Assembly (NCBI GenBank): GCA_964520655.1
Contig: CAZFNI010000001.1
Span: 122,283 to 186,282, forward strand
Origin: an uncultured Planctomycetales bacterium
GTDB taxonomy: Bacteria > Omnitrophota > Gorgyraeia > Zapsychrales > Fredricksoniimonadaceae
DNA: 64,000 nucleotides
Direction: 5' to 3'
Shown: positions 1 through 64,000 of the stretch, piece by piece
Layout: each line of letters starts with the position of its first letter
Numbering within the stretch: the first letter of the stretch is position 1
Translations under genes and position numbers: made by a program
The notes under the pieces: generated by a model
What the model was told of the DNA's origin: nothing
The model's input: the letters and a program-made list of their open reading frames with translations, nothing else
Database searches by the model: none

Positions 1-351
1 AATAAAGGGCAAGCCATGGTCAAGGTGGGAGATGATTTTGTGTCTTTGACCCGTGAACTGTTGGAGAAAAGTATTGGTGCGGCATCTTTTCATGATAAAG
101 CTTTCTTAAGCAAGGATATTTTAGGGGTCGATCAAGCCATGAAAACCTCTCCTGATAAAGATCTGGGCGGTATCGACCTTTCTAGATCATTGCACCTGCA
201 GACGAACAGCAATGGGCAAAGTATAGACATTCAGATTGATGCCGCTGTTTTAGAACAGCTCCAGCAAGCGCAGGGCTTAACACCGCGTATCCTCTATATC
301 GAGCCATTAAAGAGCATGCAGGGCTTCCTCGGTATTTTACCTTTTAAATAA
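1..351 (+). CDS. hypothetical protein. The frame is open from window position 1, so this is probably a 5'-truncated C-terminal fragment. First in-window ATG is at 16.
   Basis: Open frame 1 from position 1 to the stop at 351. I see no recognisable motif. A -10-like TATAAT lies downstream at ~377. Confidence 0.35.
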   Translation, partial: NKGQAMVKVGDDFVSLTRELLEKSIGAASFHDKAFLSKDILGVDQAMKTSPDKDLGGIDLSRSLHLQTNSNGQSIDIQIDAAVLEQLQQAQGLTPRILYIEPLKSMQGFLGILPFK

Positions 352-7319: not shown

Positions 7320-9026
7320 ATGAGCGATTCAAATATTATTATTTTTCTAGTGCAGTTGTTTTTACTCTTAGGGTTGTCGCGGGTATTGGGTGAAGTGTTA
7401 AATCATTTCCGCCAGCCGGCCCTGACCGCAGAGATCCTGGTGGGGATATGTCTTGGCCCCACCATTTTGGGCCGTTTTTTCCCTTCTGTTCATGCTGAGA
7501 TCTTTCCTGATAATGCCATTCAGATGACGATGTTCCAGACGGTGGCATGGCTTGGAGCTTTTTTCTTTTTGCTGGAAGCTGGTTTGGAAATAGATTTTTC
7601 CAGCGCCTGGCGTCAGAAATCCGAAGCGTTAACGATCGCCATTATGGATATCCTTATTCCCATGGGGATAGGATTCAGCTTGGCCTGGATGCTTCCGGAT
7701 GCCTATCTGGTATCCACGGAGAAACGCATTGAGTTCTCGGTTTTTATGGCAACGATCCTGACTGTGTCTGCGATGCCGATCACGGTGCGTGTCCTGCATG
7801 ATCTTAAACTATCCAAGACAGACTTAGGTTTCCTGATCATGACAGCTCTGTCGGTCAACGATATCCTTGGGTGGTTGTTGTTTACCATCGTGTTTGGCTT
7901 TTTTATTCAGAACACGCTTCACGTACCCACACTGGTGTATACCTTTTTAGAAGCGGGATTCTTTGTGGTCTTTTGCCTGACCTGGGGCAGACACATCAGC
8001 AATTGGATCGTCAATAAAATGAAGGCCTATAAATTACCAGAACCTGCTGCCTCTTTGACGTTCATCTTTTTGCTGGGGCTCTGGTCGGGGGCTGTGGCCC
8101 AGAAAGTGGGCTTGCACGCGCTCTTTGGTTTTTTTCTGGCGGGTGTCATGGCAGGGGAGGCCAAAGCACTTTCCGAGAAGACTCGACATACGATCAGCCG
8201 CATCGTCTACGCCTTATTCGTTCCGCTTTTTTTTGCCGGTATCGGCTTGAAGATGGACTTTTTTAAGTACATTGATCTTTTCTTGATCCTCTTTGTGGCC
8301 ATGGTTGGGGTCGGTGTTCGCTTTATTGGTGCGTGGGTCGGCGTATCCATGACCAAACTGCCTAAGGACAATCGGGCAGTCATTGCGATCGCCCATACAC
8401 CGGGCGGGATGATGGAGATCGTCATGGGGCTGGTGGCTTTGGAGAATCATTTGATCACACCGACGGTGTTCGTCTCGATCGTCCTTGGAGCTTTACTGAC
8501 GGCTATTGTTGTTGGTCCCTGGCTTGGCTGGGCGCTGGGTAAGCGTAAACATATCAGTGTGTTTGAATATTTTTCCCGTAGCGGGATCGATTCAGCCTTG
8601 CTTGTAGAAAGCAAGGAACAGGCCATCATGAAAATGTCGGATATCGCGTTTCATGAAACCGGCGTTGAAATGGCTGAGATCTATCTGGCGGTGTTAGCCC
8701 GTGAAGCGTTGGTGGGCACGGGGTTGGAACATGGCGTTGCGATCCCGCACGCGCGTTTGAATAATTTAACTAAACCCATTGTTGTCTTTGCCAGATCAGA
8801 ACATGGTATTGAGTGGGATTCACCCGACGGCAGCAAAGCCCGTTACATATTTCTAGTCCTTTCTCCTAAAGATGATGATGTCACGCCCATCCAGATCCTG
8901 CAGGCCATTGCCAAAGTCATGCATGATCCAAGGACGATCGGTTCACTTGAAAGCAAACACGATAGCGCCCAGATCTGGGCTGTATTTCAGCATGCCTTTG
9001 ACAGGCTTTATGTAGAAAGGAGATAA
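7320..9026 (+). CDS. cation:proton (Na+/H+) antiporter fused to a C-terminal PTS EIIA type-2 (fructose/Ntr-like) regulatory domain
   Basis: About 12 TM helices over the first ~400 aa. The C-terminal domain carries the EIIA-2 signature GVAIPHARL (His phosphorylation site). Confidence 0.75.
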   Translation: MSDSNIIIFLVQLFLLLGLSRVLGEVLNHFRQPALTAEILVGICLGPTILGRFFPSVHAEIFPDNAIQMTMFQTVAWLGAFFFLLEAGLEIDFSSAWRQKSEALTIAIMDILIPMGIGFSLAWMLPDAYLVSTEKRIEFSVFMATILTVSAMPITVRVLHDLKLSKTDLGFLIMTALSVNDILGWLLFTIVFGFFIQNTLHVPTLVYTFLEAGFFVVFCLTWGRHISNWIVNKMKAYKLPEPAASLTFIFLLGLWSGAVAQKVGLHALFGFFLAGVMAGEAKALSEKTRHTISRIVYALFVPLFFAGIGLKMDFFKYIDLFLILFVAMVGVGVRFIGAWVGVSMTKLPKDNRAVIAIAHTPGGMMEIVMGLVALENHLITPTVFVSIVLGALLTAIVVGPWLGWALGKRKHISVFEYFSRSGIDSALLVESKEQAIMKMSDIAFHETGVEMAEIYLAVLAREALVGTGLEHGVAIPHARLNNLTKPIVVFARSEHGIEWDSPDGSKARYIFLVLSPKDDDVTPIQILQAIAKVMHDPRTIGSLESKHDSAQIWAVFQHAFDRLYVERR

Positions 9027-29237: not shown

Positions 29238-32200
29238 ATGTTTCAACGATTATTCCACTATTTCGTTACAATGGCTTTTTTCACATCAGTAAGTTTACCT
29301 GTGTTTGCCCAACTTCCAGCGATCAATCTTCCGGAACCAGGCGCCGCTGTCACCGTAAGCGCTGTTTATCAGCCGGTGTTGATCAAAGGGGTCAAGGTTG
29401 ACTCCAAGCATCCATTACATCTGGAATTTATTGTCGATCCTAACGGTCTTTCTATTCAAGACAAATCTTTACGAGCCCAAACCCTGCGTTCTGTCAGGTA
29501 TTTTTTAGCTGCGCTTACTGTCCCCAATGATCAATTATGGGTCAATCTTTCGCCGTATGAGAAACAACGCATTATCCCGGATGGTCTTTCCGCCACTGAA
29601 ATGGGGAGGGATCTGCTGGCACAGGATTATCTGCTTAAGCAGTTGACCGCGACATTATTGAGCCCAACGGCGTCGCCAGGTAAAGAATTCTGGGAACGTG
29701 TTTATCGTCAGGGCAGCCACAGCAAACAGGGAGATCCCGTCCGTATTAATGCTTTCCATAAAGTTTGGATCGTTCCGGATCTTGCAGAGATTAGGGAACA
29801 TAACGGGGTCGCGGTCATTGCGAAAAGCCGTTTAAAGGTCATGCTGGAAGAGGATTATCTGGCAGTAAAAAAGAATGCTAGAACGAACGTTACTGAGGGG
29901 AAAGACCGTGCGTCAACTGAATTCATGCGTGCTGTCATCCTCCCTGAACTGGAACGGGAGGTCAATGAAGGAGCGAATTTTAGTATTGTCCGCCAAGTCA
30001 ATGATGCGCTCTTATTAGCGGCATGGTTCAAGCAAAGGGTCAGACAGGGCGTCCTGGCCTCTGTCTACACAGACCGCAACAAGATCGATGGTATTGACCT
30101 TCAGGATAAAACAGCCAAAGAAAAGATCTATACTCGTTATTTGAAGGCATTTAAAAAGGGCGTTTATAATCAGATCAGGGAGGATGTTGACCCATTGACC
30201 CATCTGAAGATGCCGCGTAAATATTTTTCTGGAGGATATGATGGGACGCATCCATTATTCGTTGTCCAGCCGGCTTCAGAACTTTCCATGATAGAGGCTG
30301 CTGGTGGTGCTCGAGCACTGCTTGCGCCTGTTGATCTAATGGTCATGGCTGATCGGGCTCAAGTTTCCCACGTCACGGCCCAGGAGCGCCTGCAGGAGAT
30401 TAGGCATGACGGGTACGCTGGTTTTCCTGTGGTTGTTGGTGATCAAGACCTTCCGTCTGGAATGACTTATGCATTAAGTTTTTATGATGCCACGGCCGGG
30501 GAAAAGAATAATCCTCTACGGGCTCTGATCAAGGCGGGGAAATTACGCGCTGGGCCGGATTTTAAGTTATTGATCGATGGGGTTCAGGACGGGGATGGTA
30601 TCCTGGTGTCAACCGACAGTGAGGTAGAAGTGGATCGGGTGCTGGTCAAGATACTAAGCGGTGATCAACAAGCGGCTGCATTTGATGCCTGGAAAAAGAA
30701 AGCCCGCAGCGCCGCCATTAAACCATTGGCCATCCATACTTCCAGCATGATCGCCCGCCCAACTGAAGTGCTGTATCGATATGGTATTCTTAAGTTGTTG
30801 ATGTCAAAAGATACGGTTTCCATGAAAGAGATCATCGATCATGTTCGTTCCCTGGTTGTTGATGGAACAATCATTCGAAATAATACACCTAATACCCAGT
30901 ATATTTTTGCTGTCCTGCGTGCATATGCCTCGCTGGGTTGGTTGACCTTTGCGGGAGAGTCGGCCAGTGAAGAGATGGTGTTCTCTTTGACAGAGCGTGG
31001 TCAACAGGCGTTGACTGCTGCAAAGAGCTATGCGGCAGTTGCTGATGCTATCCCAGAGTTTGACAAGATCGTTGACCATTTGTTCAACCGTTCATCGGTG
31101 CTGCTTTTGCCTGCTGGCGCCGCTTCATTGCGATCCATGGCTCTAAGTTCTCAACAGGGGTGGGGGTTGCCGGATAATATGGACGAAGAGGTTCGCCATT
31201 TGGTCCGCGGGCAATTGGACGGTTATCTGATCACCAATCTTGCCCTGGCGTTGCATATGGAAGGTGTATTTCGTTTGATCAATGCTGATCTTGACCTGGA
31301 CATGGATGCTATTGTGCGTTCGAGGAAAATTAGCGGGAATACAGATGAACTTAAGGCGGCGCTGGATATTCTAGCCAATGCTGGATTCCTGCGTGAGTAT
31401 GGGGCAGGACGGTACCATGTGACCTCGGAAGGGGTTGTTGCGTTCGACAGGGTCTTGTCATACGGGGTCCCCGTATCTTACAGGCCAAGTTATGACCTGG
31501 CGGAACGTTTTTTGTTCGGAGACGCAAAGCAGATCCCGCGCATGGATGATGAAGGGCATGAATTGCTTGTCTATCGCTACTTGAACGTCCTTGGTTCCGG
31601 TGCCTCGCATGCTACTTATTTTAAGCAAGTTGACAAGATGGTTGTCCAGATGATCCAGCAGCGTTTTAACAGCGGGGACATTCCTGAGCCAGAAGCATTG
31701 ACAACCCTGGCGCCTTTTGTATTGTCATTCGCTGATACCGGCTCCGGTGACGGGAAGTTTTTGGCGCACATTTATCATGTTATTGTGAAGCAAACGCGTT
31801 ACGGCGAGCTGATGCGGGCATATCCACATCTTTATAAGATCGATATGGTGGGGGTGGATTATAACGGTAAATCAAGAGAGGCCACCAGCGCGACACTATC
31901 AGCAGAACGGATCGAACATTCAGTCATTTTCGGGGACATCAATGAGCCTGCTGATATTGTGCGTGACGTGAACAAAGAGCTTGCCAGGAAAAACCAGGGG
32001 TCGCGTCTGTTGGTGATCCATACCCGGACATTCCTGGATCACAATCGTCCCTGGACAGGGATTAAAAATGTGGAACAGGCAAAAGCGCGCGTGTCTTCGT
32101 CAACAGGGACTTATGGCTGGCGCGGTGAGGCGATCCCCAATAATGTCGTCGAGCAGAATCTGTATGAACACTTCAAGTCTTGGGCGGACGCATTAAGTTC

Positions 32201-32681
32201 AGCTGGTCAGAAGGACTTGATCGTGATCGAACTGCACACGGTGCCTCCTGCGATAGCGGCTGTGAATATTGGCCGCACGCTGGATGTTCCTTATTTCTTG
32301 TCGCATGCCTTCTCAGATCAGCTCATCATTGAGTTCCCGGTTTATGATGCCAGGGTCAAGGAGGCTGGATTTGTCCGGCACCCGGATGCTTCGTTCCACA
32401 AACGGTTTCCTGAAGGGGATCTGACCACGGTATCGGTCGATTACTGGATGCTGCCGGACGTTGTTGTGCCTCCCGCCAAAGCAGGCGGGGAGAGTGATAT
32501 GGCCTCTGCGGCGGATGTCGGCGGTATCAACCTTGATCCTCGTTTGGGGCTGCTACGCATTGACACCGGCAAAGAACCTGTGACGCCAGGAGAAACACGG
32601 CCGCTGCCGATCTCTGATATGGATATCAAAGGTTTATACCCCGTACTGATCAAGATCATTCCTTTAAGAAATGAGCAATGA
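29238..32681 (+). CDS. exported paralog 1: shared ~330-aa N-terminal module (ends PRKYFSGG) fused to a C-terminal class I SAM-dependent O-methyltransferase-like domain
   Basis: Signal peptide MAFFTSVSLPVFA. N-module blocks LWVNLSPYE, GRDLLAQDYLLKQLTATL, NAFHKVWIV and LKVMLEEDYLA. MTase motif I FADTGSGDG, acidic MVGVD, FGDINEP (like GGDMF of OMTs) and LLVIHTRTFLDHNRPW (like ILHDW). Confidence 0.6.
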   Translation: MFQRLFHYFVTMAFFTSVSLPVFAQLPAINLPEPGAAVTVSAVYQPVLIKGVKVDSKHPLHLEFIVDPNGLSIQDKSLRAQTLRSVRYFLAALTVPNDQLWVNLSPYEKQRIIPDGLSATEMGRDLLAQDYLLKQLTATLLSPTASPGKEFWERVYRQGSHSKQGDPVRINAFHKVWIVPDLAEIREHNGVAVIAKSRLKVMLEEDYLAVKKNARTNVTEGKDRASTEFMRAVILPELEREVNEGANFSIVRQVNDALLLAAWFKQRVRQGVLASVYTDRNKIDGIDLQDKTAKEKIYTRYLKAFKKGVYNQIREDVDPLTHLKMPRKYFSGGYDGTHPLFVVQPASELSMIEAAGGARALLAPVDLMVMADRAQVSHVTAQERLQEIRHDGYAGFPVVVGDQDLPSGMTYALSFYDATAGEKNNPLRALIKAGKLRAGPDFKLLIDGVQDGDGILVSTDSEVEVDRVLVKILSGDQQAAAFDAWKKKARSAAIKPLAIHTSSMIARPTEVLYRYGILKLLMSKDTVSMKEIIDHVRSLVVDGTIIRNNTPNTQYIFAVLRAYASLGWLTFAGESASEEMVFSLTERGQQALTAAKSYAAVADAIPEFDKIVDHLFNRSSVLLLPAGAASLRSMALSSQQGWGLPDNMDEEVRHLVRGQLDGYLITNLALALHMEGVFRLINADLDLDMDAIVRSRKISGNTDELKAALDILANAGFLREYGAGRYHVTSEGVVAFDRVLSYGVPVSYRPSYDLAERFLFGDAKQIPRMDDEGHELLVYRYLNVLGSGASHATYFKQVDKMVVQMIQQRFNSGDIPEPEALTTLAPFVLSFADTGSGDGKFLAHIYHVIVKQTRYGELMRAYPHLYKIDMVGVDYNGKSREATSATLSAERIEHSVIFGDINEPADIVRDVNKELARKNQGSRLLVIHTRTFLDHNRPWTGIKNVEQAKARVSSSTGTYGWRGEAIPNNVVEQNLYEHFKSWADALSSAGQKDLIVIELHTVPPAIAAVNIGRTLDVPYFLSHAFSDQLIIEFPVYDARVKEAGFVRHPDASFHKRFPEGDLTTVSVDYWMLPDVVVPPAKAGGESDMASAADVGGINLDPRLGLLRIDTGKEPVTPGETRPLPISDMDIKGLYPVLIKIIPLRNEQ

Positions 32682-43590: not shown

Positions 43591-44338
43591 AAATCTATTC
43601 TTTGGGATCGCGGTATTATTGATGTGGTCAGTCTCGGGTTATGCTGCTGATTCCGACAAGGTCTCTGCTAAAAAAGGTTTCGCGCTGGTTGAATTGTTCG
43701 CGTCTGAAGGTTGTGGTAGCTGTCCGGCGGCGGATGCTCTCTTAACCAAGATCCTTAAAAAAGCTTCCAAAGAACATCTGCCTATTTATGCGTTAAGTTT
43801 TCATGTGGATTACTGGAATTATCTGGGTTGGAAAGACCGCTTTAGTTCACCCATTTATACTGAACGTCAGGGGCAGTATGTCTATGTGTTGAAAGCCAAG
43901 AATTCTTATACGCCGCAAATGGTCATCAACGGACAAAAGGAATGCGTCGGTTCTGATGAGAAAATGGTGTGGGGGTATATCAATGGATTCTTGGCTCAAC
44001 CGTTCTCGGTTAATGTCAAGCTTGATCTGACTCATGAGGGGATAAGCAAAGTTAAGGTTCGTTATCATGTTGATCCAGTTGTAGAGGGTGCCTCGATCAA
44101 CTTGGCGCTGGTTGAACGCGATGTCAAAAGTCATCCCAATGCCGGTGAGAATGACGGGCAGCTGCTGGAACAGGATAATGTTGTGGTGAACTTTCAGACC
44201 ATTGCGTTGGCTCAACCTCAAGGGGAAGTGTCCTTTGACTTGCCTTCCGGCATTGATCCTTACAAATTCTCTGTGATCGCGTTTGTTCAAAAAATGGATG
44301 ACCTGAAAATTCTGACTGCCAATAGTGTGGACATATAA
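43568..44338 (+). CDS. exported DUF1223-family thioredoxin-like protein (CxxC)
   Basis: Signal peptide. [17 protein letters not shown] is typical of DUF1223. Confidence 0.55.
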
Positions 44339-45956
44339 AATGAAAATACTGATCCGTATTGCTGTTGTACTCTTGGGTATAGGGTTTATCCTTATCCCGC
44401 TGGCGCTTTATGTGTTAATCCCAATGCAGGGCTCGAAAATTTTAAAGACACCTGTTAAAGTCCGTTCGGTGTACTTTAATCCTCTGACGCTGGATCTAAA
44501 GATCAACGGGCTTGCCATCCTGGACTCAAAACAACAGCCAGTTGTTGGGTTTCGTCAATTGGATGTGGATGTGAGTTTGTTTGATTTAGTGAAAGGTAAA
44601 TATCGTGTCCAGAAAGTAGCTCTGGATGGGTTTAATCTCGCGGTGGTCATGCTCCCTGACGGGCATATTAATTTGCTGGATATCGTCAACAATGCCATGG
44701 CAACGCAGACTACGCAGGCAAAGCAAACAAAAAAGCCTGCTGCCGCGCCCGCACCATCAAGCGGCAAGCCGCAAGACATTCCTTTGGTCGTTGTGGATAA
44801 GATCATTGTTTCTGACGGGATGGTGACGTTCAAGGATCAAAGCATAACACCAAATTTTGCCACAAAACTTCACGGCATCAATGTCAACCTTAATGGTCTC
44901 TCAACGGATCCCACGGCCACGGCACACGTAGTTTTTAAGGCCAGACTGGATGAGAAGGGGGTTATTACTAACGAAGCTAGTATCAAGCCGTTGGCTGTGC
45001 CATTGTCGCTTGAAACTACCTTTGGTTTGAATTCGTACGCGTTGACCGTATTGTCCCCCTATGTCGGCAAGTACACTGGACGTGCGTTACAAGATGGAGG
45101 TTTTGATCTGCAGATGACCTATCGGATCAGCGACAATAAGCTTGCCGCCAGTCATAAGATATTGATCCAGCATTTCAAATTTGGGGAGAAAGTGGAGAGT
45201 AAAGACGCGCTGCATTTACCGTTTGGGCTGGCGATCGCGCTTTTGGAAGATCCTCAAGGAAAGATAAAGATCTCATTGCCGGTCAAGGGGGACATGAGTG
45301 ATCCAAAATTCGAATATTGGCATTTGGTGGGTCAGGTGGTGTCCAATTTCTTTACCAAACTTGTCACCAAGCCGTTCATGTTCTTAGCATCGTTAGTCAC
45401 GGGATCTGAGGAAAGTACGGATGAGTTGGCCAGCGTCAAGTTTACGCCGGGTCAGTTCGAGTTGACGATTCCCGAACAGGAGAAATTAAAAGTATTGTCG
45501 AAAAGCTTAATGGAACGCCCTAAGCTGCGCTTAAAGATCAATGGAAGTTTTGATCCTGATCTGGACTGGAAAGCCATTAAAGCGGAAATGTTCCATAAGG
45601 ATTATACGCAGCTGCGAGAAGATTCCAAAAGAGCCGACACGATGATCTATCGTCAGCTGTATCAGCGTCGTTTCGGTATCCGTGCTCTGTGGCAGTTGGC
45701 CAGGAAATATAAAAAGGCGATCGGGGAATATAATGACCAGGATTTTGATCAGGAAATGAAAAAGCAGCTGATCGAGAATGCGCCTGCGGATAAAGGGGCC
45801 TTGGATGTCCTTGGGGCGGGCCGTGCTCAGGTGGTCTTTAATTATCTTCAAAGCCAGGGTTTTGATCCTTCAAGGTTGGAAATGGGCCAAAGTCAACCGG
45901 TGATGGGAAGCATGGGGTTTGTGCCTTTAGAGTTCACTCTTACCGTTATCGAATAA
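44325..45956 (+). CDS. DUF748/AsmA-like protein with N-terminal TM anchor and a truncated OmpA-like C-terminus
   Basis: N-terminal TM helix. The C-terminal GAGRAQVVFNYLQSQGFDPSRLEMGQSQPV resembles the OmpA C-terminal motif. Confidence 0.5.
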   Translation: MWTYKMKILIRIAVVLLGIGFILIPLALYVLIPMQGSKILKTPVKVRSVYFNPLTLDLKINGLAILDSKQQPVVGFRQLDVDVSLFDLVKGKYRVQKVALDGFNLAVVMLPDGHINLLDIVNNAMATQTTQAKQTKKPAAAPAPSSGKPQDIPLVVVDKIIVSDGMVTFKDQSITPNFATKLHGINVNLNGLSTDPTATAHVVFKARLDEKGVITNEASIKPLAVPLSLETTFGLNSYALTVLSPYVGKYTGRALQDGGFDLQMTYRISDNKLAASHKILIQHFKFGEKVESKDALHLPFGLAIALLEDPQGKIKISLPVKGDMSDPKFEYWHLVGQVVSNFFTKLVTKPFMFLASLVTGSEESTDELASVKFTPGQFELTIPEQEKLKVLSKSLMERPKLRLKINGSFDPDLDWKAIKAEMFHKDYTQLREDSKRADTMIYRQLYQRRFGIRALWQLARKYKKAIGEYNDQDFDQEMKKQLIENAPADKGALDVLGAGRAQVVFNYLQSQGFDPSRLEMGQSQPVMGSMGFVPLEFTLTVIE

Positions 45957-46160: not shown

Positions 46161-47513
46161 ATGGCTGGTATTCTATTATTTTTATCCATTATTCTTATCC
46201 CGTCATTATCTTTTGCCGCTATCAGTTTGAATGTCACACCAGCGGACGGCAGCAGCAGCTTGAAACTTGAGCAAGCGTACCTGGGGTTGGACAACAAAAA
46301 AGACGTTCGTATCCGTGTCACAGCAACGGATGGTAAAAGGTATCAAGTTTTTGCGCGAGTTCTCGATCCTATAGTAAATGAAAAAGGCGAAAGCCTCGAT
46401 GTGCGATCCGTTTCTTTGGCAACGATGGCGAGTTCCAATACGTCAGGGACGCTTTATCTCCAGAATGAGAACCCATTGAGCATGGGGGAGCAGTTGATCT
46501 ACAGCTCTGGACAGAATGGGGAAAGCGACTCGTTTACCATCACGTATGCGTTATCGCCGCAAAATATCAGCAGCGGCGGCAATTATTCCGGCCGTCTGGT
46601 ATTTACAGCCAGGTCTTCTGATGGCGCGGACAGTCAGGCAATGCTGGTGATAAATATCCAGTCATTAAGTCATTGGAAGGCTTCGGTGGTTGGCGGTAAG
46701 ACATCAGACCGTATCATGGTCAATGATAGGGATGTGACGGAAAGAACAGCGGATTTTGTGAAGATCACTTTCTTTGGCAACGGCGGTCAGGATGTACGTA
46801 TATACCAGGAAGCGTCCGTTATACCGCAGAATGCCGAAGGGGCGGATCTGGGGCCGGACGGTTTGGTGTTCTACGCCGCGGGGCAAGGGGATGGGATCAA
46901 GGCGCAGAATGTTTCAGTATTAAGCCCAAATCGTACCTTGGTTTACCAAGGGCATGAGCCTCAAGCGGAGATGCTTTTGTATTATCAGTTGAATCCGGCG
47001 GTATTATCCCGACAAGTGCCAGGGATGTACGCGGGTAGATTAAAGTTTACGGTAGAATCGGAACAAGGAACGCAGGATTTTAATATTGATGTGCAGTGTC
47101 AGATTCAACCGGTATTCACACTCGATGTTTCCGTACCAGGCAGCGGGATCAGTTTTGATAATGTGATCGCCAATAATCCGGCTCAAGAGAGGGAAGTAAC
47201 GATCACGGTACACACCAATTTACACAAAGCGTACCAGGTCAGTCAGAATTTTCAGTCGTTGATGACCAATGAGAAAGGTCATCAGATCAGTAAAGAATAT
47301 TTCACTGTAAAAGTGGAATTGCCCCAGGGGGGCAGCGGCAGAACGAAATATCAGGATTTTCTGCCGGTAGAAACAGGAGAATACCCGATATTTGCATCAA
47401 ACAGTAAAGGTGATCCCGTAGTGTTCAAGGTTACCTATAAACTGCAAGGATATCAGGGGATGAGCGCGGGAAATTTTAATGCGCCTATCCAGTATTCTTT
47501 AAACCAAAACTAA
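46161..47513 (+). CDS. exported tandem SCPU (spore coat protein U / Csu-type) domain protein; putative pilus tip or minor subunit
   Basis: Signal peptide. Repeated C-terminal SCPU-like motifs GNYSGRLVFTA, GMYAGRLKFTVESE and SAGNFNAPIQYSL. Confidence 0.5.
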   Translation: MAGILLFLSIILIPSLSFAAISLNVTPADGSSSLKLEQAYLGLDNKKDVRIRVTATDGKRYQVFARVLDPIVNEKGESLDVRSVSLATMASSNTSGTLYLQNENPLSMGEQLIYSSGQNGESDSFTITYALSPQNISSGGNYSGRLVFTARSSDGADSQAMLVINIQSLSHWKASVVGGKTSDRIMVNDRDVTERTADFVKITFFGNGGQDVRIYQEASVIPQNAEGADLGPDGLVFYAAGQGDGIKAQNVSVLSPNRTLVYQGHEPQAEMLLYYQLNPAVLSRQVPGMYAGRLKFTVESEQGTQDFNIDVQCQIQPVFTLDVSVPGSGISFDNVIANNPAQEREVTITVHTNLHKAYQVSQNFQSLMTNEKGHQISKEYFTVKVELPQGGSGRTKYQDFLPVETGEYPIFASNSKGDPVVFKVTYKLQGYQGMSAGNFNAPIQYSLNQN

Positions 47514-47536
47514 CAAAATAACAAAGGGGGAGAGTA

Positions 47537-48145
47537 ATGAAGAGAGTCATCGGTTTATTTGTAGCAGGGGTTGTTTTACTGGCCCAGTCCGGTTATGCGG
47601 CAACAGTGTCATACACTGTGTCAGCGACCGTGCCAACGTCATCGGCTGTTTCGATTAACGCGTTTAGCGTTAACTCAACCAGTGGTGTTAGAACAGCGAT
47701 CACGGGGACAGCATTAAGTTTTGATCCGCTAATCTACCAGCCTTCATTAGGTATCTATTTACCGGATCATTATTTCGTCGTTGAATCAGGTTTGACTTCA
47801 GGTGCCGGCAACCAGGACATCACGGTTGTTTACACGGAAGGTACGAATCCAAACAATCCGGGTCATGGTTTAGGTTGGAAATCAGTGGCGACATTCAACA
47901 AGGTCACTGGTCCCACAACGGAAGTCACGTTGTCTGCCCATGGTAAGAAAATGCTCAAAGATCTGACCGCTGAACATATCACCGCGGCGGAGATCGGTAC
48001 GAACTTGTTGAGAATGTACGTGGGCGTTGTTACCAAAGATCCGGCCGCAGTTCCGTTGGATCCGGCAGCAAGCGAAGTTATCAGCAACGCGGATCGCCAA
48101 GGCGCCTATAACGGCACATTGGTTGTCACCGCGACAGTTGTCTAA
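47537..48145 (+). CDS. exported SCPU-domain pilin-like subunit (archaic chaperone-usher type)
   Basis: Signal peptide MKRVIGLFVAGVVLLAQSGYA. C-terminal GAYNGTLVVTATVV, the SCPU C-terminal motif. 202 aa. Confidence 0.5.
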   Translation: MKRVIGLFVAGVVLLAQSGYAATVSYTVSATVPTSSAVSINAFSVNSTSGVRTAITGTALSFDPLIYQPSLGIYLPDHYFVVESGLTSGAGNQDITVVYTEGTNPNNPGHGLGWKSVATFNKVTGPTTEVTLSAHGKKMLKDLTAEHITAAEIGTNLLRMYVGVVTKDPAAVPLDPAASEVISNADRQGAYNGTLVVTATVV

Positions 48146-48172
48146 GGAAATACGTAACATAAGGCAGATGCA

Positions 48173-48973
48173 TTGAATAAAACAGTTATTTTCTTAGTTT
48201 TGGTGTTGGCATGCTTTTCCGGTAAGACGGCAATGGCGCAGCTTTTTCTCGAAGAGGGGAAGATCGTCACAGCTGTCGAACCGGGAGAGCGTGTCAACAA
48301 ATCGATTTATATTTCCAATACTTCTGACAAGCCGATCAATGTCAGGGCGTATTGGCAGGACTTTATGTATCAGCCGCCCTATGACGGGGTTAAAGCGTTT
48401 GTGCCTGAGGGTACGACCAAATTATCCGCATCCAAGATGATGACGTTCTCCCCGTTGGTTTTCCAATTGCCTGCCTTCGGCAAGCAAAAGATAGAGTATT
48501 CTGTGAATGTGCCTTCAACCGCCAGGGGCGGCTATTATGGGGTTTTATTCTTTGAAAAAGCACCAGATCCTCTGCAGGCCAAGACGGGTTTAAGCATTGT
48601 CACCAGGGTCGGTGCTTTATTTTTCCTGGAAACTAAGAACAAGTCCAAGAAATCTGAAGTGGCGGATGTTGTTGTCGCTACAGATAAAATAACCGGTGTT
48701 TTCAAAAACCAGGGGGATGTGATCTTGATCCCCCGCATGACTTACAACGTTTTCGATAAGGAGGGATTGGTCGCCGACCGCGGTGAATTAAAGAAAATAT
48801 ATGTTCCCCCCGGCGCCTCCGCGAATTGGGAAATGGTCCTGCCTAAATTAAGCGCAGGAAAATTCTCTGTAGTACTAAACACGGATTTAGATGATGGGGA
48901 CGTGATCGTCACTGAGATCAGCATTGATGTGGATACCGCAGGTCATCTGAAGATTGAAAACGTCAAGAATTGA
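48173..48973 (+). CDS. periplasmic pilus chaperone-like protein (PapD/CsuC-like fold)
   Basis: Signal peptide. N-terminal beta-rich pattern KSIYISNTSDKPINVRAYWQ...PLVFQLPAFGKQKI resembles the PapD-like domain 1. Confidence 0.4.
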   Translation: MNKTVIFLVLVLACFSGKTAMAQLFLEEGKIVTAVEPGERVNKSIYISNTSDKPINVRAYWQDFMYQPPYDGVKAFVPEGTTKLSASKMMTFSPLVFQLPAFGKQKIEYSVNVPSTARGGYYGVLFFEKAPDPLQAKTGLSIVTRVGALFFLETKNKSKKSEVADVVVATDKITGVFKNQGDVILIPRMTYNVFDKEGLVADRGELKKIYVPPGASANWEMVLPKLSAGKFSVVLNTDLDDGDVIVTEISIDVDTAGHLKIENVKN

Positions 48974-54006: not shown

Positions 54007-54285
54007 ATGGAGGTGTTCGTGGAATATCAAAAGATCGCAAAAGTGTTAAGGGTCTTGGGTCATCCGGCCAGGCTGCAGATGGCGGAGGGGATCGCCAAGT
54101 ACGGCTGCCATGTGGGCAAGATCGTTGACAGGATGGGGCTGCCCCAGTCAACGGTTTCCCAGCATCTGGCAGCACTGCGCTCGGCAGGGATCGTGGATTG
54201 CGAAAGGAAAGGTCTACGGTCCTGCTATCACGTCACCGATAAAAGATTTCTTAAGATGCTTAAAGTGCTGGGAGAGTTCTCTTGA
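54007..54285 (+). CDS. ArsR/SmtB-family metalloregulatory transcription factor
   Basis: HTH GHPARLQM...CHVGKIV...QSTVSQHLAALRSAGIV. Confidence 0.8.
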   Translation: MEVFVEYQKIAKVLRVLGHPARLQMAEGIAKYGCHVGKIVDRMGLPQSTVSQHLAALRSAGIVDCERKGLRSCYHVTDKRFLKMLKVLGEFS

Positions 54286-55649
54286 AAACGATCACTATGC
54301 TTATCATGATGTTGTTTATGCCTATTGTTTTAGTACACGCTCAGGCTGAAGGTATGGGGAATGTTGTTGCCTTCAAAGAATATTTGGGGCAGGTGTTGGA
54401 GTATTATCCTATATTAAAGAAGGACAATGCGTCGCTGGAAAAAGCCATTGCTCAGAAAGCGGTGGCAGCATCAGCTCAAATGCCTCAATTGTGGGCCTCC
54501 GTTAAGATGGATTACGGTGATGATCCGGTTTATGTCTTTGGAGCGCTTTTGCGGCAAAATAAATTTAGCAATGATGATTTTGCGTTAGGACGTCTCAATA
54601 GTCCAGCACCAAAAGCAGATTATGGGGCAGGGGTAGAAGGGCAATGGTTGCTGTTTGATTTTTCTCAGACGGCATCCAAAGTAAAAATGTTTAAAGCGAC
54701 CGTGGAAGCTGCTGATTTCCAAAAGAAGGCGTCTCGTATGGAGGCGATATTGGCTGCTTCAGAAGTGTACAGCCGCTTAGCCCAAACGGATGAATTTCTA
54801 AAGATCCTGGATCACATTGTTAAGAATGTGAATGATGATGTGAATATGTCAGAAAGTTTGAGCCGTCAAGGATTGAAGCTTGGGGCGGATTTTTATTTGG
54901 CACGCATGGTGCAAACCAGACTCTCACAGACGAAAAATGAAGCACTGGCTGAGAGGGCGGCATTGAATATGGTGTTTAATATTATGCGGGGCCAAGCTCC
55001 AGATATTCCGGTTAAAGTAGTGATGGATTTTAATAAGTCCATACTGTTTGATGGCAAAGCCGAGGATTGGGTTGCCAAATCCGTGTCACATCGCTTAGAT
55101 ATTCAAGCCATGTCCAAAATGATCGAGAGTCAGGGGTATGGGCTTGAACATGAACGCAAAAGCGCACTACCTAAGATCATGGCATACGGCAGAGCGGATG
55201 AGAACGTGCATCGTCTGGGAAGTTCAGGTGGCAGCAATTATACGCTTGGCATTAAAGCAAAAATGGATCTGTTTAATCCTGGGCATGGATCAAGTGTAAA
55301 GGTTGAACAGCAAGAAGTAAATCGTCTAACGGCTCAATTACAGCAGACGAAAGATCAAGCGGCCAAAGACATTGCAGAAACATTTTATCGGGCGGAGGCG
55401 CTGGTCAATAATCTGAAGCTCGCAGAACAGTACCGCAATGATGCTCAAGAAGCTGTGAGTCTTATGGATCCTCTCTATAAAGAAGGCCGGCGCTCCATTG
55501 AACAAATGGCTGCTGTTCGGACAAGTTTTCTGGAAGCTGATCAGCGTTTGTTGAATCTGCAAGCGAAGCGATTGCAGACGTATCTGACATTGAAATATTA
55601 TTCGGGTGAACTTAATGAGAGCGAGGCATTGAACGTTTATGGACAATGA
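54282..55649 (+). CDS. TolC-like outer-membrane efflux factor (OMF)
   Basis: Signal peptide. Two coiled-coil / beta-barrel repeats. 455 aa. Overlaps the ArsR stop and the RND start. Confidence 0.75.
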   Translation: MKTITMLIMMLFMPIVLVHAQAEGMGNVVAFKEYLGQVLEYYPILKKDNASLEKAIAQKAVAASAQMPQLWASVKMDYGDDPVYVFGALLRQNKFSNDDFALGRLNSPAPKADYGAGVEGQWLLFDFSQTASKVKMFKATVEAADFQKKASRMEAILAASEVYSRLAQTDEFLKILDHIVKNVNDDVNMSESLSRQGLKLGADFYLARMVQTRLSQTKNEALAERAALNMVFNIMRGQAPDIPVKVVMDFNKSILFDGKAEDWVAKSVSHRLDIQAMSKMIESQGYGLEHERKSALPKIMAYGRADENVHRLGSSGGSNYTLGIKAKMDLFNPGHGSSVKVEQQEVNRLTAQLQQTKDQAAKDIAETFYRAEALVNNLKLAEQYRNDAQEAVSLMDPLYKEGRRSIEQMAAVRTSFLEADQRLLNLQAKRLQTYLTLKYYSGELNESEALNVYGQ

Positions 55650-58600: not shown

Positions 58601-58890
58601 TTGATTTTATCCAATTACGATTGAAAGAGGGGATGCCTCTTCAAGAAGCGGTGATCGATGCCGGGGCCACGCGTTTCAGGCCAATGTTGTTAACGGCATT
58701 GGCAGTAGCGGTTGGGGCATCAGTTATTTTGTTTGACCCCATTTTCCAGGGGCTGGCGGTGTCGCTCATGGCTGGTGAGATCGCATCGACTTTTCTAGCC
58801 AGGACGGCTATTCCAGTCGTCTATTATATGGCCAATAGGAAAGATATTTCATTGATCAACAACGAGGATAAAGGAGGTGTATCATGTTAG
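55639..58890 (+). CDS. RND-superfamily efflux transporter permease (CzcA/CusA/AcrB-like)
   Basis: 1083 aa, 12 TM helices with two large periplasmic loops. N-terminal MNWIGKVVAFFVQSKVTPLILGFSLFLGIIAV. No membrane-fusion-protein gene lies between the OMF and the RND. Confidence 0.85.
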   Translation: MDNERMNWIGKVVAFFVQSKVTPLILGFSLFLGIIAVVNLAREEEPQISVPMFDIFVRYPGASAQEVERRIINVGERKLWEVPGVEYIYSTAQSNGALIVVRFKVGEDMERSLTKLYTKVFANLDFLPPGAGQPLVKAHAIDDVPILSMTFHSAKHSPQQLRSIAAAVRESINTIPDISQTQLIGGRTRQWMVHLDEEKLKAHYLGVADIGHLIRQANIKTEGGHLEVSPEAALVQANGFFRSAEDLNNLVVSVSGKDIVFLKDIADIVDGPDQDERLVNIRFGKGYELEDKGVYDAVTLAVSKRKGANATWIAQQALEKVKSLEGNIIPAGVKMTVTRNYGETAAEKSNELLYHMGIAVLGVTLLIALALGWRESGVVAVAIPVTLALTLASFYWMGFTLNRITLFALIFSIGILVDDPIVNVENIVRHLRLAQNRGKKFLDIVIGAVNEVQSPLILATLTVVAAILPMAFVSGLMGPYMRPIPIGSSMAMMFSMMAAFVATPWAAYVILRRAHERGALKDGHDHREDALTKFYRWYMQPLIYNNQVRQIFLIVMGVLLCASILLVPLKAVKVKMLPFDNKDEFQVILDMPEGTSFDKTAAVIQEMAEYLRSVPEVKDIEAYVGTSAPYNFNGLVRHYYLRQSPREADLQVNLLPKHKRHRQSHEIAKSVRTGIHEIAARHRGHVQVAEVPPGPPVLSTLSMEVYGHDNKDRDQLSRDVEGVMAANANITDITTHVASDQRLMRLVIDHHKAGLNGIASDVIAKTIAAALAGEKVDLAHLEEEYEPVEIMVRLPSKKRADLDHVLAMTILSRNGVPVPLRDLIVLKDGIEDKPIYHKNLMRVSYVLGDVTGPFESPVYVVFELDQKLKGLKLPGVNNKQTQLRTHWTDMPKDESLWAVKFDGEWQVTYEVFRDLGIAFGVVLLLIYVLVVGWFKSFKTPIIIMLPIPLTLVGILPAHWIFGVFFSATSMIGMIAGAGIVVRNSIILVDFIQLRLKEGMPLQEAVIDAGATRFRPMLLTALAVAVGASVILFDPIFQGLAVSLMAGEIASTFLARTAIPVVYYMANRKDISLINNEDKGGVSC

Positions 58891-61121: not shown

Positions 61122-61186
61122 TCGTATTCTTTTTCATTTCCTAGACAGTGAATTCAAAATAATCAGAACGTAACGGAGAGAGCCAC

Positions 61187-64000
61187 ATGTTCAAGAAAAC
61201 ACTTCACGTCATTGTCATTGTTTGTTTTGCGGCGACTTTTATGACCCCTTTAAGAAAGGCTGAGGCCGAGTCTTTGGTGTTGCCGCAACCTGGCACCATG
61301 GTCAATTTAAGCCCCGCATTCTCTCCGGTGCTCATTAAAGGAATAAAGATCCATCCCGATAATCCTTTGTTATTTGATTTCATCATTGATACCGGTCATA
61401 CGGGTTTTAAAGCCCAGCAGCCGCAGTTGCGTCAGGAAACAGAAAAGCTTATCAAATATTTTTTGGCGACTTTGACGATCCCAGAGAATGAACTGTGGGT
61501 TAACTTGTCCCCGTATGAAAAAGACCGCATTATCCCCGACACATTAGGCCAGACAGAATTGGGCAGGGACATGCTGGCGCAGGATTATATCTTAAAGCAG
61601 TTGACTGCCTCCTTGATCTATCCGGAAAAAGAATTAGGGAAAGATTTTTGGAACAGGGTGTATGCCAAGTCCCAGGATCGTTTTGGTAAAGCGCAGGTAC
61701 CGGTCAATACCTTTAACAAAGTGTGGATCATGGCGGATAAGGCGAAGATCTATGTCCATGACAATACCGCGTTTGTTGTTGCGTCGCATTTAAAGGTCAT
61801 GCTCGATAAAGATTATTTGGCCTTAAAGAAGAATCAGAAGACCGCAGCAAACACAAAAGATGTGACATCCGACATCGTACGTGAGATTGTTCTGCCCGAG
61901 ATCGAAAAGGAAGTCAACACGGGCAAGAACTTCGCCAATTTACGTCAGGTGTATCAGTCGATGATTTTAGCGACTTGGTATAAGAACAATTTGAAAGAGG
62001 CTTTATTAAACCAGGTCTATACGGATAAGTCCAAGTTAAACGGGGTCACCGCCGACGATAAAGCAGTGACGGAAAAGATCTACGCGCAGTATTTGGAAGC
62101 GTATAAGAAGGGTGTTTTCAATTATATTAAAGACGATCCCGCATCAACAACGCCGCGCAAATATTTCTCCGGCGGGGCTGTTGGTCTTCACGCACAAGAT
62201 ATCAAGGTGGTTGGAAGCAATGACGTAGATTTTGCCATGTTCGCCAAGACGGGTGCAACAGGTGATCTGCTGCAAGCGACGGCAGCGGTAGAGAAAGATG
62301 CGGCGATGCAGACAGGTCTTCCTGTAAATAACCCTAGACAAACTGAAAGTTGGAATAAGCTTCAGGTGCTTGCATCCAATAGGAGTCAGTATGATTTAAG
62401 AGAATTATTCCGTACTGATCCAGCTCGTTCCGTGAATATGCTTGTCGCGCTCAATGATCAAGTCGAGGTGGATTTTTCAAAGAATCTGGTTGATGGACCG
62501 ACGTTGTCAACATTAGTGGCGTTGGCGAATGAAGTTCAATTGCCAGCAGCCATCGAAATGATGTTCCAGGGAGAGAAGATCAATGAAACAGAAGGACGTG
62601 CGGTCTTACATGTTGCTTTAAGAAATGTGACCCGCGACGCAAGCGGTGAGCTTGTGACGGCGAATGGTCCTATTCTGGTCGACGGAGAAGATGTTATGCC
62701 TCATGTTATTGATGTGTTAAAGAGCGTGGAAGTCTTTACCAAAAAAGTGCAGTCTGGTCAGTGGGTGGGGTTGTCTGGTAAAAAGATCAAAAATATCGTT
62801 AATGTTGGGATTGGCGGTTCTGATCTTGGTCCGCGGATGGCTGCTGAAGCGTTAAAACCTTACAAAGCAGGGGATGTTGATGCATATTTCGTTTCTAATG
62901 TTGACGGTACTGATGCCCAAGAGGTAATGAAGAAACTGGACCCGCAAGAAACTCTTGTGATCGTTGCTTCCAAAACATTCACAACACAAGAAACAATGAA
63001 AAATGCAGATACTTTGAAAAATTGGGTCTTAAAAAGTTATCAGGGTGATATGGAGGCGATTAAAAAGCATTTTGTGGCTGTTTCAACAGCTAAAGATAAA
63101 GTTGAGGCATTTGGTATTGATACGGCCAATATGTTTGAATTCTGGGATTGGGTCGGCGGGCGTTATTCTGTTTGGTCTGCGATCGGGCTTTCTCTGGCAA
63201 CGTATATCGGGTTTGATAACTTTCTTGAGTTTTTGGCTGGAGGAAGAGAGGCGGATGAGCATTTTAGATCTCAGCCGTTTGAAAAAAACATTCCGGTATT
63301 GAAAGCTTTATTGAATGTGTGGTACGGGAACTTCTTAGGAGCGGAAAGTTTTGCGATCTTACCTTATGATCAATACATGCACCGTTTTCCTGCCTTTGCG
63401 CAGCAATTTTTTATGGAAAGCAACGGCAAGAGTGTTGACCGGGAGGGGAAGCCGGTGGGTTATCAAACTGGTTTGATCGCGTGGGGGGAACCGGGCACAA
63501 ATGGGCAGCATTCGTTTTATCAATTGATCCATCAAGGGACGCGTCTGGTTCCAGCAGATTTTATAGGGATAGCTCAAACACATAATCCATTGCCAGGGCA
63601 TCATCCAATGCTGTATTCGAATTTTGTTGCCCAGACGGAAGCGTTGGCTTTTGGCGCGACAAAAGATGAGGTAAGGAAAGCACTTGAAGCAGACCCAAAA
63701 TATCAAGGTAAGGATCTTGATTGGCATGCCATGCAGCAGACGTTCGCTGGGAATAAGCCCACGACCTCGATCGAGGTTGATCAGCTTTCTCCAAGGACAT
63801 TGGGTAATCTGGTGGCTATGTATGAGCAGCAGATTTTTACGGAAGGGATCATTTGGAATATCTATTCTTTTGACCAGTGGGGCGTTCAGCTTGGCAAGAA
63901 GATGTCTGACAGTGTGCTTCCGTTCTTAACTGGAAAGAGGAGTATTAGTGAACTTCCTCAGTCAGGGCTTTCGGCATCTGCTCAGCGGCAGGTTCTTAAG
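61187..64000 (+). CDS. pgi: exported paralog 3: shared N-terminal module fused in-frame to a complete glucose-6-phosphate isomerase. 3' end lies beyond the window.
   Basis: Signal peptide MFKKTLHVIVIVCFAATFMTPLRKAEA. N-module blocks LWVNLSPYEKDRIIPDTLGQTELGRDMLAQDYILKQLTASLIYPEKELGKDFWNRVYA...PRKYFSGG. From ~62340: ESWNKLQ...MFQGEKINETEGRAVLHVALRN...GIGGSDLGP...FVSNVDG...SKTFTTQET...FWDWVGGRYSVWSAIGLS...MESNGK...GEPGTNGQHSFYQLIHQG (PGI signatures). Frame 2 is open from 61187 to the window end. Confidence 0.6.
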   Translation, partial: MFKKTLHVIVIVCFAATFMTPLRKAEAESLVLPQPGTMVNLSPAFSPVLIKGIKIHPDNPLLFDFIIDTGHTGFKAQQPQLRQETEKLIKYFLATLTIPENELWVNLSPYEKDRIIPDTLGQTELGRDMLAQDYILKQLTASLIYPEKELGKDFWNRVYAKSQDRFGKAQVPVNTFNKVWIMADKAKIYVHDNTAFVVASHLKVMLDKDYLALKKNQKTAANTKDVTSDIVREIVLPEIEKEVNTGKNFANLRQVYQSMILATWYKNNLKEALLNQVYTDKSKLNGVTADDKAVTEKIYAQYLEAYKKGVFNYIKDDPASTTPRKYFSGGAVGLHAQDIKVVGSNDVDFAMFAKTGATGDLLQATAAVEKDAAMQTGLPVNNPRQTESWNKLQVLASNRSQYDLRELFRTDPARSVNMLVALNDQVEVDFSKNLVDGPTLSTLVALANEVQLPAAIEMMFQGEKINETEGRAVLHVALRNVTRDASGELVTANGPILVDGEDVMPHVIDVLKSVEVFTKKVQSGQWVGLSGKKIKNIVNVGIGGSDLGPRMAAEALKPYKAGDVDAYFVSNVDGTDAQEVMKKLDPQETLVIVASKTFTTQETMKNADTLKNWVLKSYQGDMEAIKKHFVAVSTAKDKVEAFGIDTANMFEFWDWVGGRYSVWSAIGLSLATYIGFDNFLEFLAGGREADEHFRSQPFEKNIPVLKALLNVWYGNFLGAESFAILPYDQYMHRFPAFAQQFFMESNGKSVDREGKPVGYQTGLIAWGEPGTNGQHSFYQLIHQGTRLVPADFIGIAQTHNPLPGHHPMLYSNFVAQTEALAFGATKDEVRKALEADPKYQGKDLDWHAMQQTFAGNKPTTSIEVDQLSPRTLGNLVAMYEQQIFTEGIIWNIYSFDQWGVQLGKKMSDSVLPFLTGKRSISELPQSGLSASAQRQVLK

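Follow-up and report, generated by a model that had tools for sequence, protein, structure and literature searches.

Why should an enzyme that depends on S-adenosylmethionine (SAM), a cofactor not expected outside the cytoplasm, be made with an export signal, and what enzyme is it? The question arises at a 1147-residue open reading frame (ORF; 29238..32681, plus strand), hereafter paralog 1, in a 64-kb stretch of DNA from an uncultured bacterium labelled Planctomycetales and placed by GTDB in the Omnitrophota (contig CAZFNI010000001.1, positions 122,283 to 186,282). This whole stretch is referred to as the window, and nucleotide positions are its own. We found that the cargo of paralog 1 is a complete class I SAM methyltransferase of the Methyltransf_36 family, the metal-dependent C-methyltransferases of the AprA MT1/SxtA MT type, and that it is embedded in a carrier family that is restricted to the Omnitrophota, occurs in many copies per genome and falls into at least 7,757 clusters at 50% identity. 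The methyltransferase itself is an ordinary addition to a Pfam family defined only recently and falls outside the polyketide synthase (PKS) subgroup that gave the family its structures; its carrier context appears to be undescribed.

Enzyme family and candidate active site of the cargo

Searches against Pfam matched residues 777–1067 of paralog 1 to Methyltransf_36 ("AprA MT2-like domain") with 212.9 bits against a cut-off of 27 (E 6e-63), covering profile positions 3–267 of 268. The preceding lid matched WH_AprA (aa 661–762, 37.6 bits) and AprA_N (aa 653–719, 34.6 bits), and beyond these three no Pfam family was found at E ≤ 1, PF00891 (Methyltransf_2) included. Sequence searches of the PDB with paralog 1 returned AprA MT1 (6b39, E 3.9e-38) and the SxtA methyltransferase (7ucl and 7uci, so named from their entry titles; E ~3e-34), and a profile of 11 orthologues reached AprA MT1 at E 3e-65, placing AprA residues 20–551 on query positions 490–1096. 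Because the AprA match spans residues 20–551, the cargo amounts to a whole enzyme unit of ~585 aa and exceeds the interval 31100–32400 to which a methyltransferase had been assigned in the sequence-only reading.

We modeled full-length paralog 1 with AlphaFold2 (AF2) from a 46-row alignment (mean predicted local distance difference test score, pLDDT, 82) and read the residue layout from pLDDT and secondary structure. Residues 372–1075 were predicted very confidently, mostly with pLDDT >90, while confidence was below 50 for aa 326–371, low for aa 1076–1093, 69–79 for aa 1094–1112 and again below 50 for aa 1113–1147. Two winged-helix-like units were apparent at aa ~517–584 and ~689–728. Foldseek comparison of the model with the PDB ranked AprA MT1 and SxtA MT at the top (E 2e-28 to 1e-22, ~590 aligned columns), with TM-scores of ~0.6–0.72 normalised to the target (7uch: E 2e-28, TM 0.68). 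MppJ and SgvM came second (E ~1e-8 to 1e-7) and other natural-product C- and O-methyltransferases third, whereas plant COMT-type O-methyltransferases were distant matches (E 1e-4 to 1e-5, TM 0.5–0.58).

Paralog 1 resembles AprA MT1 of the apratoxin loading module and SxtA MT of saxitoxin biosynthesis (PDB 6b39/6b3a/7uch and 7uci/7ucl) over the whole lid and Rossmann unit, with TM ~0.7 at 20–25% identity. These two enzymes work in a PKS loading-module context, with GNAT and acyl carrier protein (ACP) domains and a malonyl-ACP substrate, whereas paralog 1 is embedded in an exported carrier. Pfam and NCBIfam scans found no GNAT, ACP or KS/PKS domain on paralog 1 or within the window, and the standalone homologues likewise lack the loading-module context. 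Since this loading-module context is missing, we place paralog 1 in the Methyltransf_36 domain family but outside its PKS subgroup. Standalone Methyltransf_36 proteins of ~540 aa from other phyla (for example P0126, recorded as a "class I SAM-dependent methyltransferase", from a Flavobacteriaceae metagenome-assembled genome, MAG) are 28–31% identical over 94–96% of the cargo, share its domain order and carry RTFLDHNRPW, IELHT and HGFSDQ, as cargo of the paralog 1 type does. Unlike paralog 1, they have no leader, no conserved flanking modules and no counterpart of a small domain at aa 372–489 (without a Pfam match); they contain 1–5 Cys each and lie among housekeeping genes. MppJ and SgvM, metal-dependent alpha-keto-acid C-methyltransferases, have a similar fold (TM up to 0.73–0.75 normalised to the target) but no sequence similarity detectable with the orthologue profile; their N-domain is shorter, and they are cytoplasmic antibiotic-pathway enzymes.

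The residues expected of an active enzyme are retained. In the alignment of 11 orthologues, D833, G835, G837, G839 and D874, which line up with their AprA and SxtA counterparts, are invariant, as are S747, Y748, P750, H935, N936 and R937; E998, H1023 and Q1028 are nearly so. Every SAM-binding and active-site motif is kept in orthologues of 37–57% overall identity, and seven motifs are common to paralog 1, AprA, SxtA and the standalone homologues: SYxP, DxGxGxG, VGVDYN, GDIxxP, R[ST]FLDH[DN]R, E[VL]H and [HF]xFSxQ. By alignment, the candidate metal-binding or catalytic residues are H935 (FLDHN), E998 and H1000 (ELH), H1023 and Q1028. H1023 occupies the position of a His in AprA and of F458 in SxtA, as judged from an entry title that names F458H and from the single residue in which the 7uci and 7ucl sequences differ. 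In SgvM, metal-assisted catalysis proceeds through two His ligands, H244 and H296, ~52 residues apart (PMC10502145); by analogy, the likely counterparts in paralog 1, and candidate ligands, are H935 and H1000, which lie 65 residues from each other. Judged by these motifs, the methyltransferase unit looks catalytically competent and is probably active, and family membership makes metal-assisted C-methylation of a chelating carbon acid its most likely chemistry.

These results uphold part of the sequence-only reading and redirect the rest. All the motifs that it quoted are present in the ORF and belong to a match far beyond chance (E 6e-63). The class I SAM methyltransferase that it proposed is borne out by Methyltransf_36 above its curated threshold and by the invariance of motif I and of the acidic end of β2 among the orthologues; the two winged-helix segments that it placed before the core are supported by the model and by the alignment of the orthologue profile with AprA residues 20–551. 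Its assignment of the C-terminal ~430 aa holds for the core but not for the last ~72 aa, which are a linker and a conserved tail; likewise, a methyltransferase does occupy 31100–32400, but the whole unit extends over aa ~490–1075 (nt ~30705–32462). The profile comparison that it called for yielded a class I methyltransferase profile, Methyltransf_36, and not Methyltransf_2. Its family-2 assignment thus gives way to AprA MT1 and SxtA MT as the closest relatives, followed by MppJ and SgvM, and the motif that it likened to ILHDW is the FLDH motif of the metal-dependent C-methyltransferase group.

An Omnitrophota carrier family with Cys-purged cargo

Paralog 1 has every element of a carrier layout that consists of a Sec leader, an LPxPG motif, a ~300-aa N-terminal module (N-module), a variable cargo and a ~55-aa C-terminal tail (C-tail), with nearly no Cys. 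It shares with the adjacent paralog 2 only aa ~28–336 (41% identity) and a weak C-terminal stretch of ~50 aa; its N-module is 41% identical to that of paralog 2 and 49% to that of a third copy in the window. When compared with 5.8 billion proteins, paralog 1 gave >4,000 matches, for which the organism names given by the sources were only Candidatus Omnitrophota or Omnitrophica. A phmmer search with the N-module against 1.84 billion representatives at 50% identity returned 7,757 proteins at E ≤ 1e-3, 5,877 of them at E ≤ 1e-30; among 150 matches listed, the module occurred once per protein, at residues ~30–360, in proteins of 420 to 5,709 aa. A scan of one genome per species revealed at least 567 loci of the paralog 1 family, several genomes having many each, and a best full-length match to paralog 1 of 46%. 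The best 80 of these loci all came from Omnitrophota MAGs, save two labelled only "bacterium"; some bore the label "uncultured Planctomycetales".

Members of the >4,000-match set have the same N-terminal ~330 aa and then continue into very different domains. Homologues of paralog 1 carry glycolytic and sugar enzymes (phosphoglycerate kinase, PGK; triosephosphate isomerase, TPI; phosphoglucose isomerase, PGI; phosphofructokinase, PFK; UDP-glucose pyrophosphorylase; starch synthase), enzymes of nucleotide and phosphate metabolism (adenylate kinase, NUDIX, HAD, IMPase, metallophosphoesterase), other enzymes (EPSP synthase, aldo-keto reductase, GH26, peptidase M48), signalling and regulatory domains (CheR, response-regulator receiver, PP2C, DnaJ) and binding or repeat domains (LysM, HEAT, TPR, WD40, ankyrin). 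In two homologues the methyltransferase unit shares the cargo position with a second enzyme, a pyridoxal phosphate-dependent PALP domain in P0007 (1960 aa) and a NUDIX hydrolase in P0009 (1238 aa). The 1502-aa P0036, from another metagenome, has within its cargo a C-terminal sorting domain of the type IX secretion system (T9SS; PF18962, precomputed Pfam match), which is odd outside Bacteroidota. One candidate for an Omnitrophota copy free of the N-module, P0121, was rejected as the 3' half of a split gene (L086:3567-7028); a 470-aa ORF without a Pfam match ends 22 nt upstream, which points to a frameshift, a pseudogene or faulty assembly.

The N-module, modeled alone with AF2 (pLDDT 80.8), is a mixed alpha/beta domain with seven helices. 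It found no match in Pfam, NCBIfam, the PDB (Foldseek, best E 0.14; family profile) or BFVD (Foldseek). A likeness of aa 232–319 (window ~29931-30194) to New World arenavirus GP1, at E ~1e-3 with the single sequence, was gone with a 70-sequence family profile and was put down to chance. The C-tail, which has no Pfam or NCBIfam match, follows a consensus of ~55 aa, GGIDLxP...L.I..DG.G..LP...Q......I.G..PVII.I.P....P..LG, and its motif GGI[DN][LF]...P[VI][IL][IL]xIxP occurs once, C-terminally, in 99 of 120 homologues; among the rest are sequences that their sources flag as partial.

Sequence heuristics were applied to the leaders of the 191 of 214 homologues with usable N-termini. A (-3,-1) small-residue site of signal-peptidase type followed the hydrophobic core in all 191, and the n-region was net positive in 182; the twin-arginine motif and the lipobox, looked for as signs of Tat export or lipoprotein anchoring, occurred in none. 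Leaders typically end in ...PGYA↓Q, ...VFA↓Q or ...LYA↓G (arrow, predicted cleavage), with the invariant LPxPG 0–9 residues further on, and that of paralog 1 reads MFQR-LFHYFVTMAFFTSVSLP-VFA↓Q. Paralog 1 has no Cys in 1147 aa and paralog 2 a single one in 1192 aa. Across 192 family members, Cys makes up 1.6% of the leaders (122/7,607) but 0.048% of the mature parts (129/269,444), a 33-fold drop; the corresponding values are 0.76% for the other ORFs of the window and 0.2–0.9% for standalone methyltransferase homologues. Motif I itself reads GSG in paralog 1 as against GCG in AprA, SxtA and the standalone enzymes. Exclusion of Cys is typical of proteins that cross the envelope unfolded or live outside the cytoplasm, such as autotransporter passengers, Gram-positive exoproteins and S-layers. 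In addition, LysM, GH26 and peptidase M48 are classical extracytoplasmic domains. Taken as sequence evidence, these features strongly support the export of paralog 1 as a cargo carrier.

The nearest functional analogies to the carrier architecture are TpsA/CdiA exoproteins and autotransporter passengers. These have a Sec leader, a conserved N-proximal module of ~250–300 aa and a variable, Cys-poor enzymatic passenger, and CdiA toxins act in the target cytoplasm with target factors. None of their defining domains is found on the carrier: paralog 1 gave no Pfam match to the two-partner secretion (TPS) domain in aa 1–650 and none to autotransporter or POTRA-partner families, no TpsB-like gene adjoins it, and the N-module is modeled as alpha/beta and not as a beta-helix, with no fold match in the PDB. 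The conserved C-tail is a further difference; the C-terminus of paralog 1 has no autotransporter beta-barrel or T9SS sorting domain. Giant Omnitrophota proteins, from the same phylum, are reported to combine signal peptides or transmembrane segments with cytoplasm-type enzyme domains such as methylases, NUDIX and HAD (West-Roberts et al, 2023 preprint; 2026 complete-genome preprint; PMC12419801), and term searches in the text of those papers turned up no N-module/C-tail carrier. Likewise, no description of such a carrier or of its Cys purge turned up in term searches of the text of the Omnitrophota papers covered. Carrier proteins are mostly ~0.4–5.7 kaa, and the two complete copies in the window have a single cargo region between conserved ends, unlike the giant multidomain proteins.

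Where the methyltransferase might act

The explanation that we favor, and to which as a whole we give an even chance, is that paralog 1 carries an active, exported AprA-MT1/SxtA-type enzyme as the cargo of the Omnitrophota carrier and that this enzyme works outside the producer's cytoplasm. The Sec signal peptide would take the unfolded chain across the inner membrane and would be cleaved after VFA (residue 25). Because the window encodes TolC-like, AcrB and AsmA-like proteins, the envelope should have two membranes, so that Sec export alone would reach the periplasm only. The N-module and C-tail might then provide for sorting, anchoring or translocation within an undescribed pathway, which would select against Cys and may need a disulfide-free, unfolded substrate, as is the case for autotransporter and two-partner-secretion passengers.

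Since the enzyme needs both SAM and a carbon-acid substrate, its most likely workplace would be the cytoplasm of an attached host or prey cell, or the contents released from it. Intracellular pathogens are known to export SAM-dependent methyltransferases that work inside host cells, so there is a precedent in kind for the need for SAM outside the producer's cytoplasm, rightly called puzzling in the sequence-only reading. Omnitrophota have been described as ultra-small, host-dependent nanobacteria (PMC10066038); Ca. Velamenicoccus archaeovorus is reported as a predatory epibiont of this phylum that releases prey cytosolic compounds (PMC12583861), and predator intron RNA has been reported inside archaeal cells (PMC13153191). 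A broader version, possible but tentative, is a phylum-wide, undescribed export or delivery system that takes Cys-purged, cytoplasm-type enzymes into the host or prey cytoplasm or into a metabolically active extracytoplasmic compartment. If this were so, glycolytic and nucleotide-metabolism enzymes, methyltransferases and regulators would reprogramme or drain host or prey metabolism, or serve the extracytoplasmic compartment. The paralog 1 methyltransferase would be a host-acting effector, possibly C-methylating a malonyl-type or keto-acid metabolite and thereby diverting or blocking a host pathway.

Several observations weigh against this explanation. The roles given to the N-module and C-tail are guesses, since neither matches a known domain for secretion, anchoring or translocation; the C-tail, at low confidence, makes no contact with the N-module in the full-length AF2 monomer, and no secretion machinery adjoins the carrier genes in the window, where the neighbors are ordinary housekeeping genes. 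Paralog 1 and its close orthologues have H1000, but the most distant homologues with methyltransferase cargo (P0008, P0010 and P0011) have lost it, and the residue after the metal His is Asn in paralog 1, as in the standalone homologues, where AprA and SxtA have Asp. Many cargos are core metabolic enzymes (PGI in the window; PGK, TPI, PFK and adenylate kinase elsewhere), which is odd for effectors and would also fit a metabolic role outside the cytoplasm.

Such a role defines the main rival to host or prey action, namely that the enzyme is exported but stays with the producer, held in the periplasm or at the cell surface by the N-module and/or C-tail, either within a displayed-enzyme array that handles released metabolites or with its fold used as a ligand binder. 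The leaders and the Cys purge speak for it just as they do for delivery, and the cargos include both wall-directed domains (LysM, GH26) and metabolic enzymes, such as the PGI of the window. The basic N-module (pI 9.4) might suit binding to an acidic envelope, and the freeing of prey cytosolic compounds reported for the predator (PMC12583861) would provide metabolites. SAM, ATP and CoA thioesters, however, are not known to be maintained outside cells; the strict conservation of catalytic and SAM-binding residues favors catalysis over mere ligand binding, and the protein has no known anchor, lacking a lipobox, LPXTG, beta-barrel or transmembrane segment. We consider this rival unlikely, though well short of negligible.

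The cofactor problem would vanish for all cytoplasm-type cargos if the N-terminal hydrophobic helix were an uncleaved anchor or a poor signal that held the cargo at the cytoplasmic face, where SAM exists. The sequence-only reading had offered a cytoplasmic-side target as its fallback, and a 2026 preprint interprets the metabolic domains of giant Omnitrophota proteins with transmembrane segments alone in this way (10.64898/2026.06.07.730766). For the carrier family this is improbable. The positive n-region means that the N-terminus should stay inside and predicts an N-in, C-out orientation; paralog 1 shows no second hydrophobic segment, (-3,-1) sites are present in 191/191 usable members, and the uncharged stretches are mostly 12–21 residues long and followed by helix breakers. 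Mature parts contain 15- to 33-fold less Cys while leaders tolerate it, a purge for which there is no cytoplasmic reason and which therefore argues against retention; LysM and GH26 cargos are, moreover, extracytoplasmic. Thus, the export signal and the exported cargo proposed in the sequence-only reading stand by every sequence criterion applied (n-h-c organisation, (-3,-1) site, Cys contrast and the leader, N-module and C-tail layout across the family), and its fallback is disfavored.

A small-molecule O-methyltransferase of family 2 (COMT-type) is very improbable: it would share the overall architecture of a helical/winged-helix N-domain and a Rossmann core, and Foldseek sees the distant likeness to plant enzymes, but PF00891 is unmatched, the matches to metal-dependent C-methyltransferases are far stronger, and the His of the "LHDW-like" motif sits in the FLDH(D/N)R motif common to the Mn/Fe-binding AprA and SxtA. 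We give equally little credence to an inactive relic, that is, a decaying passenger, spacer or structural filler, since orthologues of 37–57% identity retain all SAM and active-site motifs, these agree with the active enzymes AprA and SxtA, and the AF2 model is very confident, even though unrelated folds and repeats (HEAT, TPR, WD40) can occupy the cargo position and H1000 is gone in three distant homologues.

With export as the preferred reading, one carrier takes a SAM-dependent enzyme, PGI and, elsewhere, PGK, TPI, PFK, adenylate kinase, NUDIX hydrolases and phosphatases behind a Sec leader, stripped of Cys. Cytoplasm-type enzymes thus appear to leave the Omnitrophota cell by an undescribed route, and such Cys-stripped exported enzymes are hard to square with the textbook compartmentation of cofactor-dependent metabolism. 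Comprising at least 7,757 clusters and marked by both a novel domain and a simple sequence signature, the family offers a handle on how uncultivated, host-dependent or predatory Omnitrophota meet other cells, and it could supply naturally Cys-free, secretion-adapted versions of common enzymes.

Other family members and gene surroundings

The window holds four members of the carrier family: paralogs 1 and 2, both complete, a third member cut off by the window end and the C-terminal end of a fourth (Table 1). No Cys is visible after the leader of the third member, and the C-terminal end of the fourth reads ...DLGGIDLSRSLHLQT...GLTPRILYIEPLKSMQGFLG.

Table 1. Features of paralog 1, other carrier-family members and neighboring genes in the window (aa, residues of paralog 1 unless stated otherwise).
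Feature	Residues	Window position (nt)	Strand	Basis or remark
Sec-type signal peptide, MFQRLFHYFVTMAFFTSVSLPVFA↓Q, predicted signal peptidase I site after VFA	aa 1–25	29238..29312	+	n-h-c organisation; AF2 helix aa 2–19
Conserved N-module, opens with LPxPG; alpha/beta, basic (pI 9.4)	aa ~28–336	29319..30245	+	Paralog comparison, AF2
Disordered linker	aa ~337–371	30246..30350	+	AF2 pLDDT <50 for aa 326–371
Small folded domain	aa ~372–489	30351..30704	+	AF2 pLDDT ~90; kept in orthologues P0002–P0008
Helical/winged-helix lid, including SYxP loop (S747 Y748 P750)	aa ~490–776	30705..31565	+	AprA_N, WH_AprA, AprA profile, AF2 pLDDT >90
Rossmann-fold core (Methyltransf_36): motif I D833-T-G-S-G-D-G839, D874, G899-D900-I	aa 777–1075	31566..32462	+	Pfam, PDB, Foldseek
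FADTGSGDG (motif I)	aa 831–839	31728–31754	+	Motif read in ORF
MVGVD	aa 870–874		+	Motif read in ORF
FGDINEP	aa 898–904		+	Motif read in ORF
FLDHNRPW	aa 932–939	32031–32054	+	Motif read in ORF
Linker and family C-tail, GGINLDP (aa 1095–1101) ... GLYPVLIKIIPL	aa ~1076–1147	32463..32678	+	Tail motif; AF2 low confidence
Paralog 2, same leader, N-module and C-tail, other cargo	1192 aa	32685..36263	+	Starts 3 nt after paralog 1 stop
Paralog 2 cargo	~800 aa	33870–36260	+	No Pfam, NCBIfam or PDB sequence match
Third member: leader, N-module and complete PGI, cut by window end	PGI aa 430–925 of its product	61184..64000	+	N-module tblastn E 2e-98; Pfam PGI E 3e-203
Fourth member, C-terminal end with C-tail (GGIDL...P.ILYIEPL)		16..351	+	Start upstream of window; tblastn E 7e-5 versus paralog 2 tail
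TolC-like outer-membrane factor, AcrB-family pump, AsmA/DUF748 protein		54282–58890 and 44325–45956	+	
Three ORFs		46161–48973		No Pfam match; precede the 896-aa protein
Protein with pilus-formation N-terminal region (T2SS-T3SS_pil_N) and SdrD_B-like domain	896 aa	48970–51660	+	
Two fusion proteins: Na+/H+ exchanger with C-terminal PTS EIIA-2; class II aldolase with short-chain dehydrogenase		7320–9026 and 3642–5609	+	

No conserved partner or secretion gene was found on comparing the gene contexts of P0002, P0003 and the standalone P0126, which differ from one another and from the window. Directly upstream of the P0003 orthologue (L084:1-7896) lies a gene for a 2832-aa product combining acyl-CoA dehydrogenase, methylmalonyl-CoA mutase and B12-binding domains, the N-terminus of which falls outside the locus. 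Within the window, three ORFs without a Pfam match precede a protein that, from its pilus-formation N-terminal region and SdrD_B-like domain, may be an envelope or pilus component. A pair of fusion proteins joins, in one case, a Na+/H+ exchanger to a C-terminal EIIA-2 domain of the phosphotransferase system (PTS) and, in the other, a class II aldolase to a short-chain dehydrogenase.

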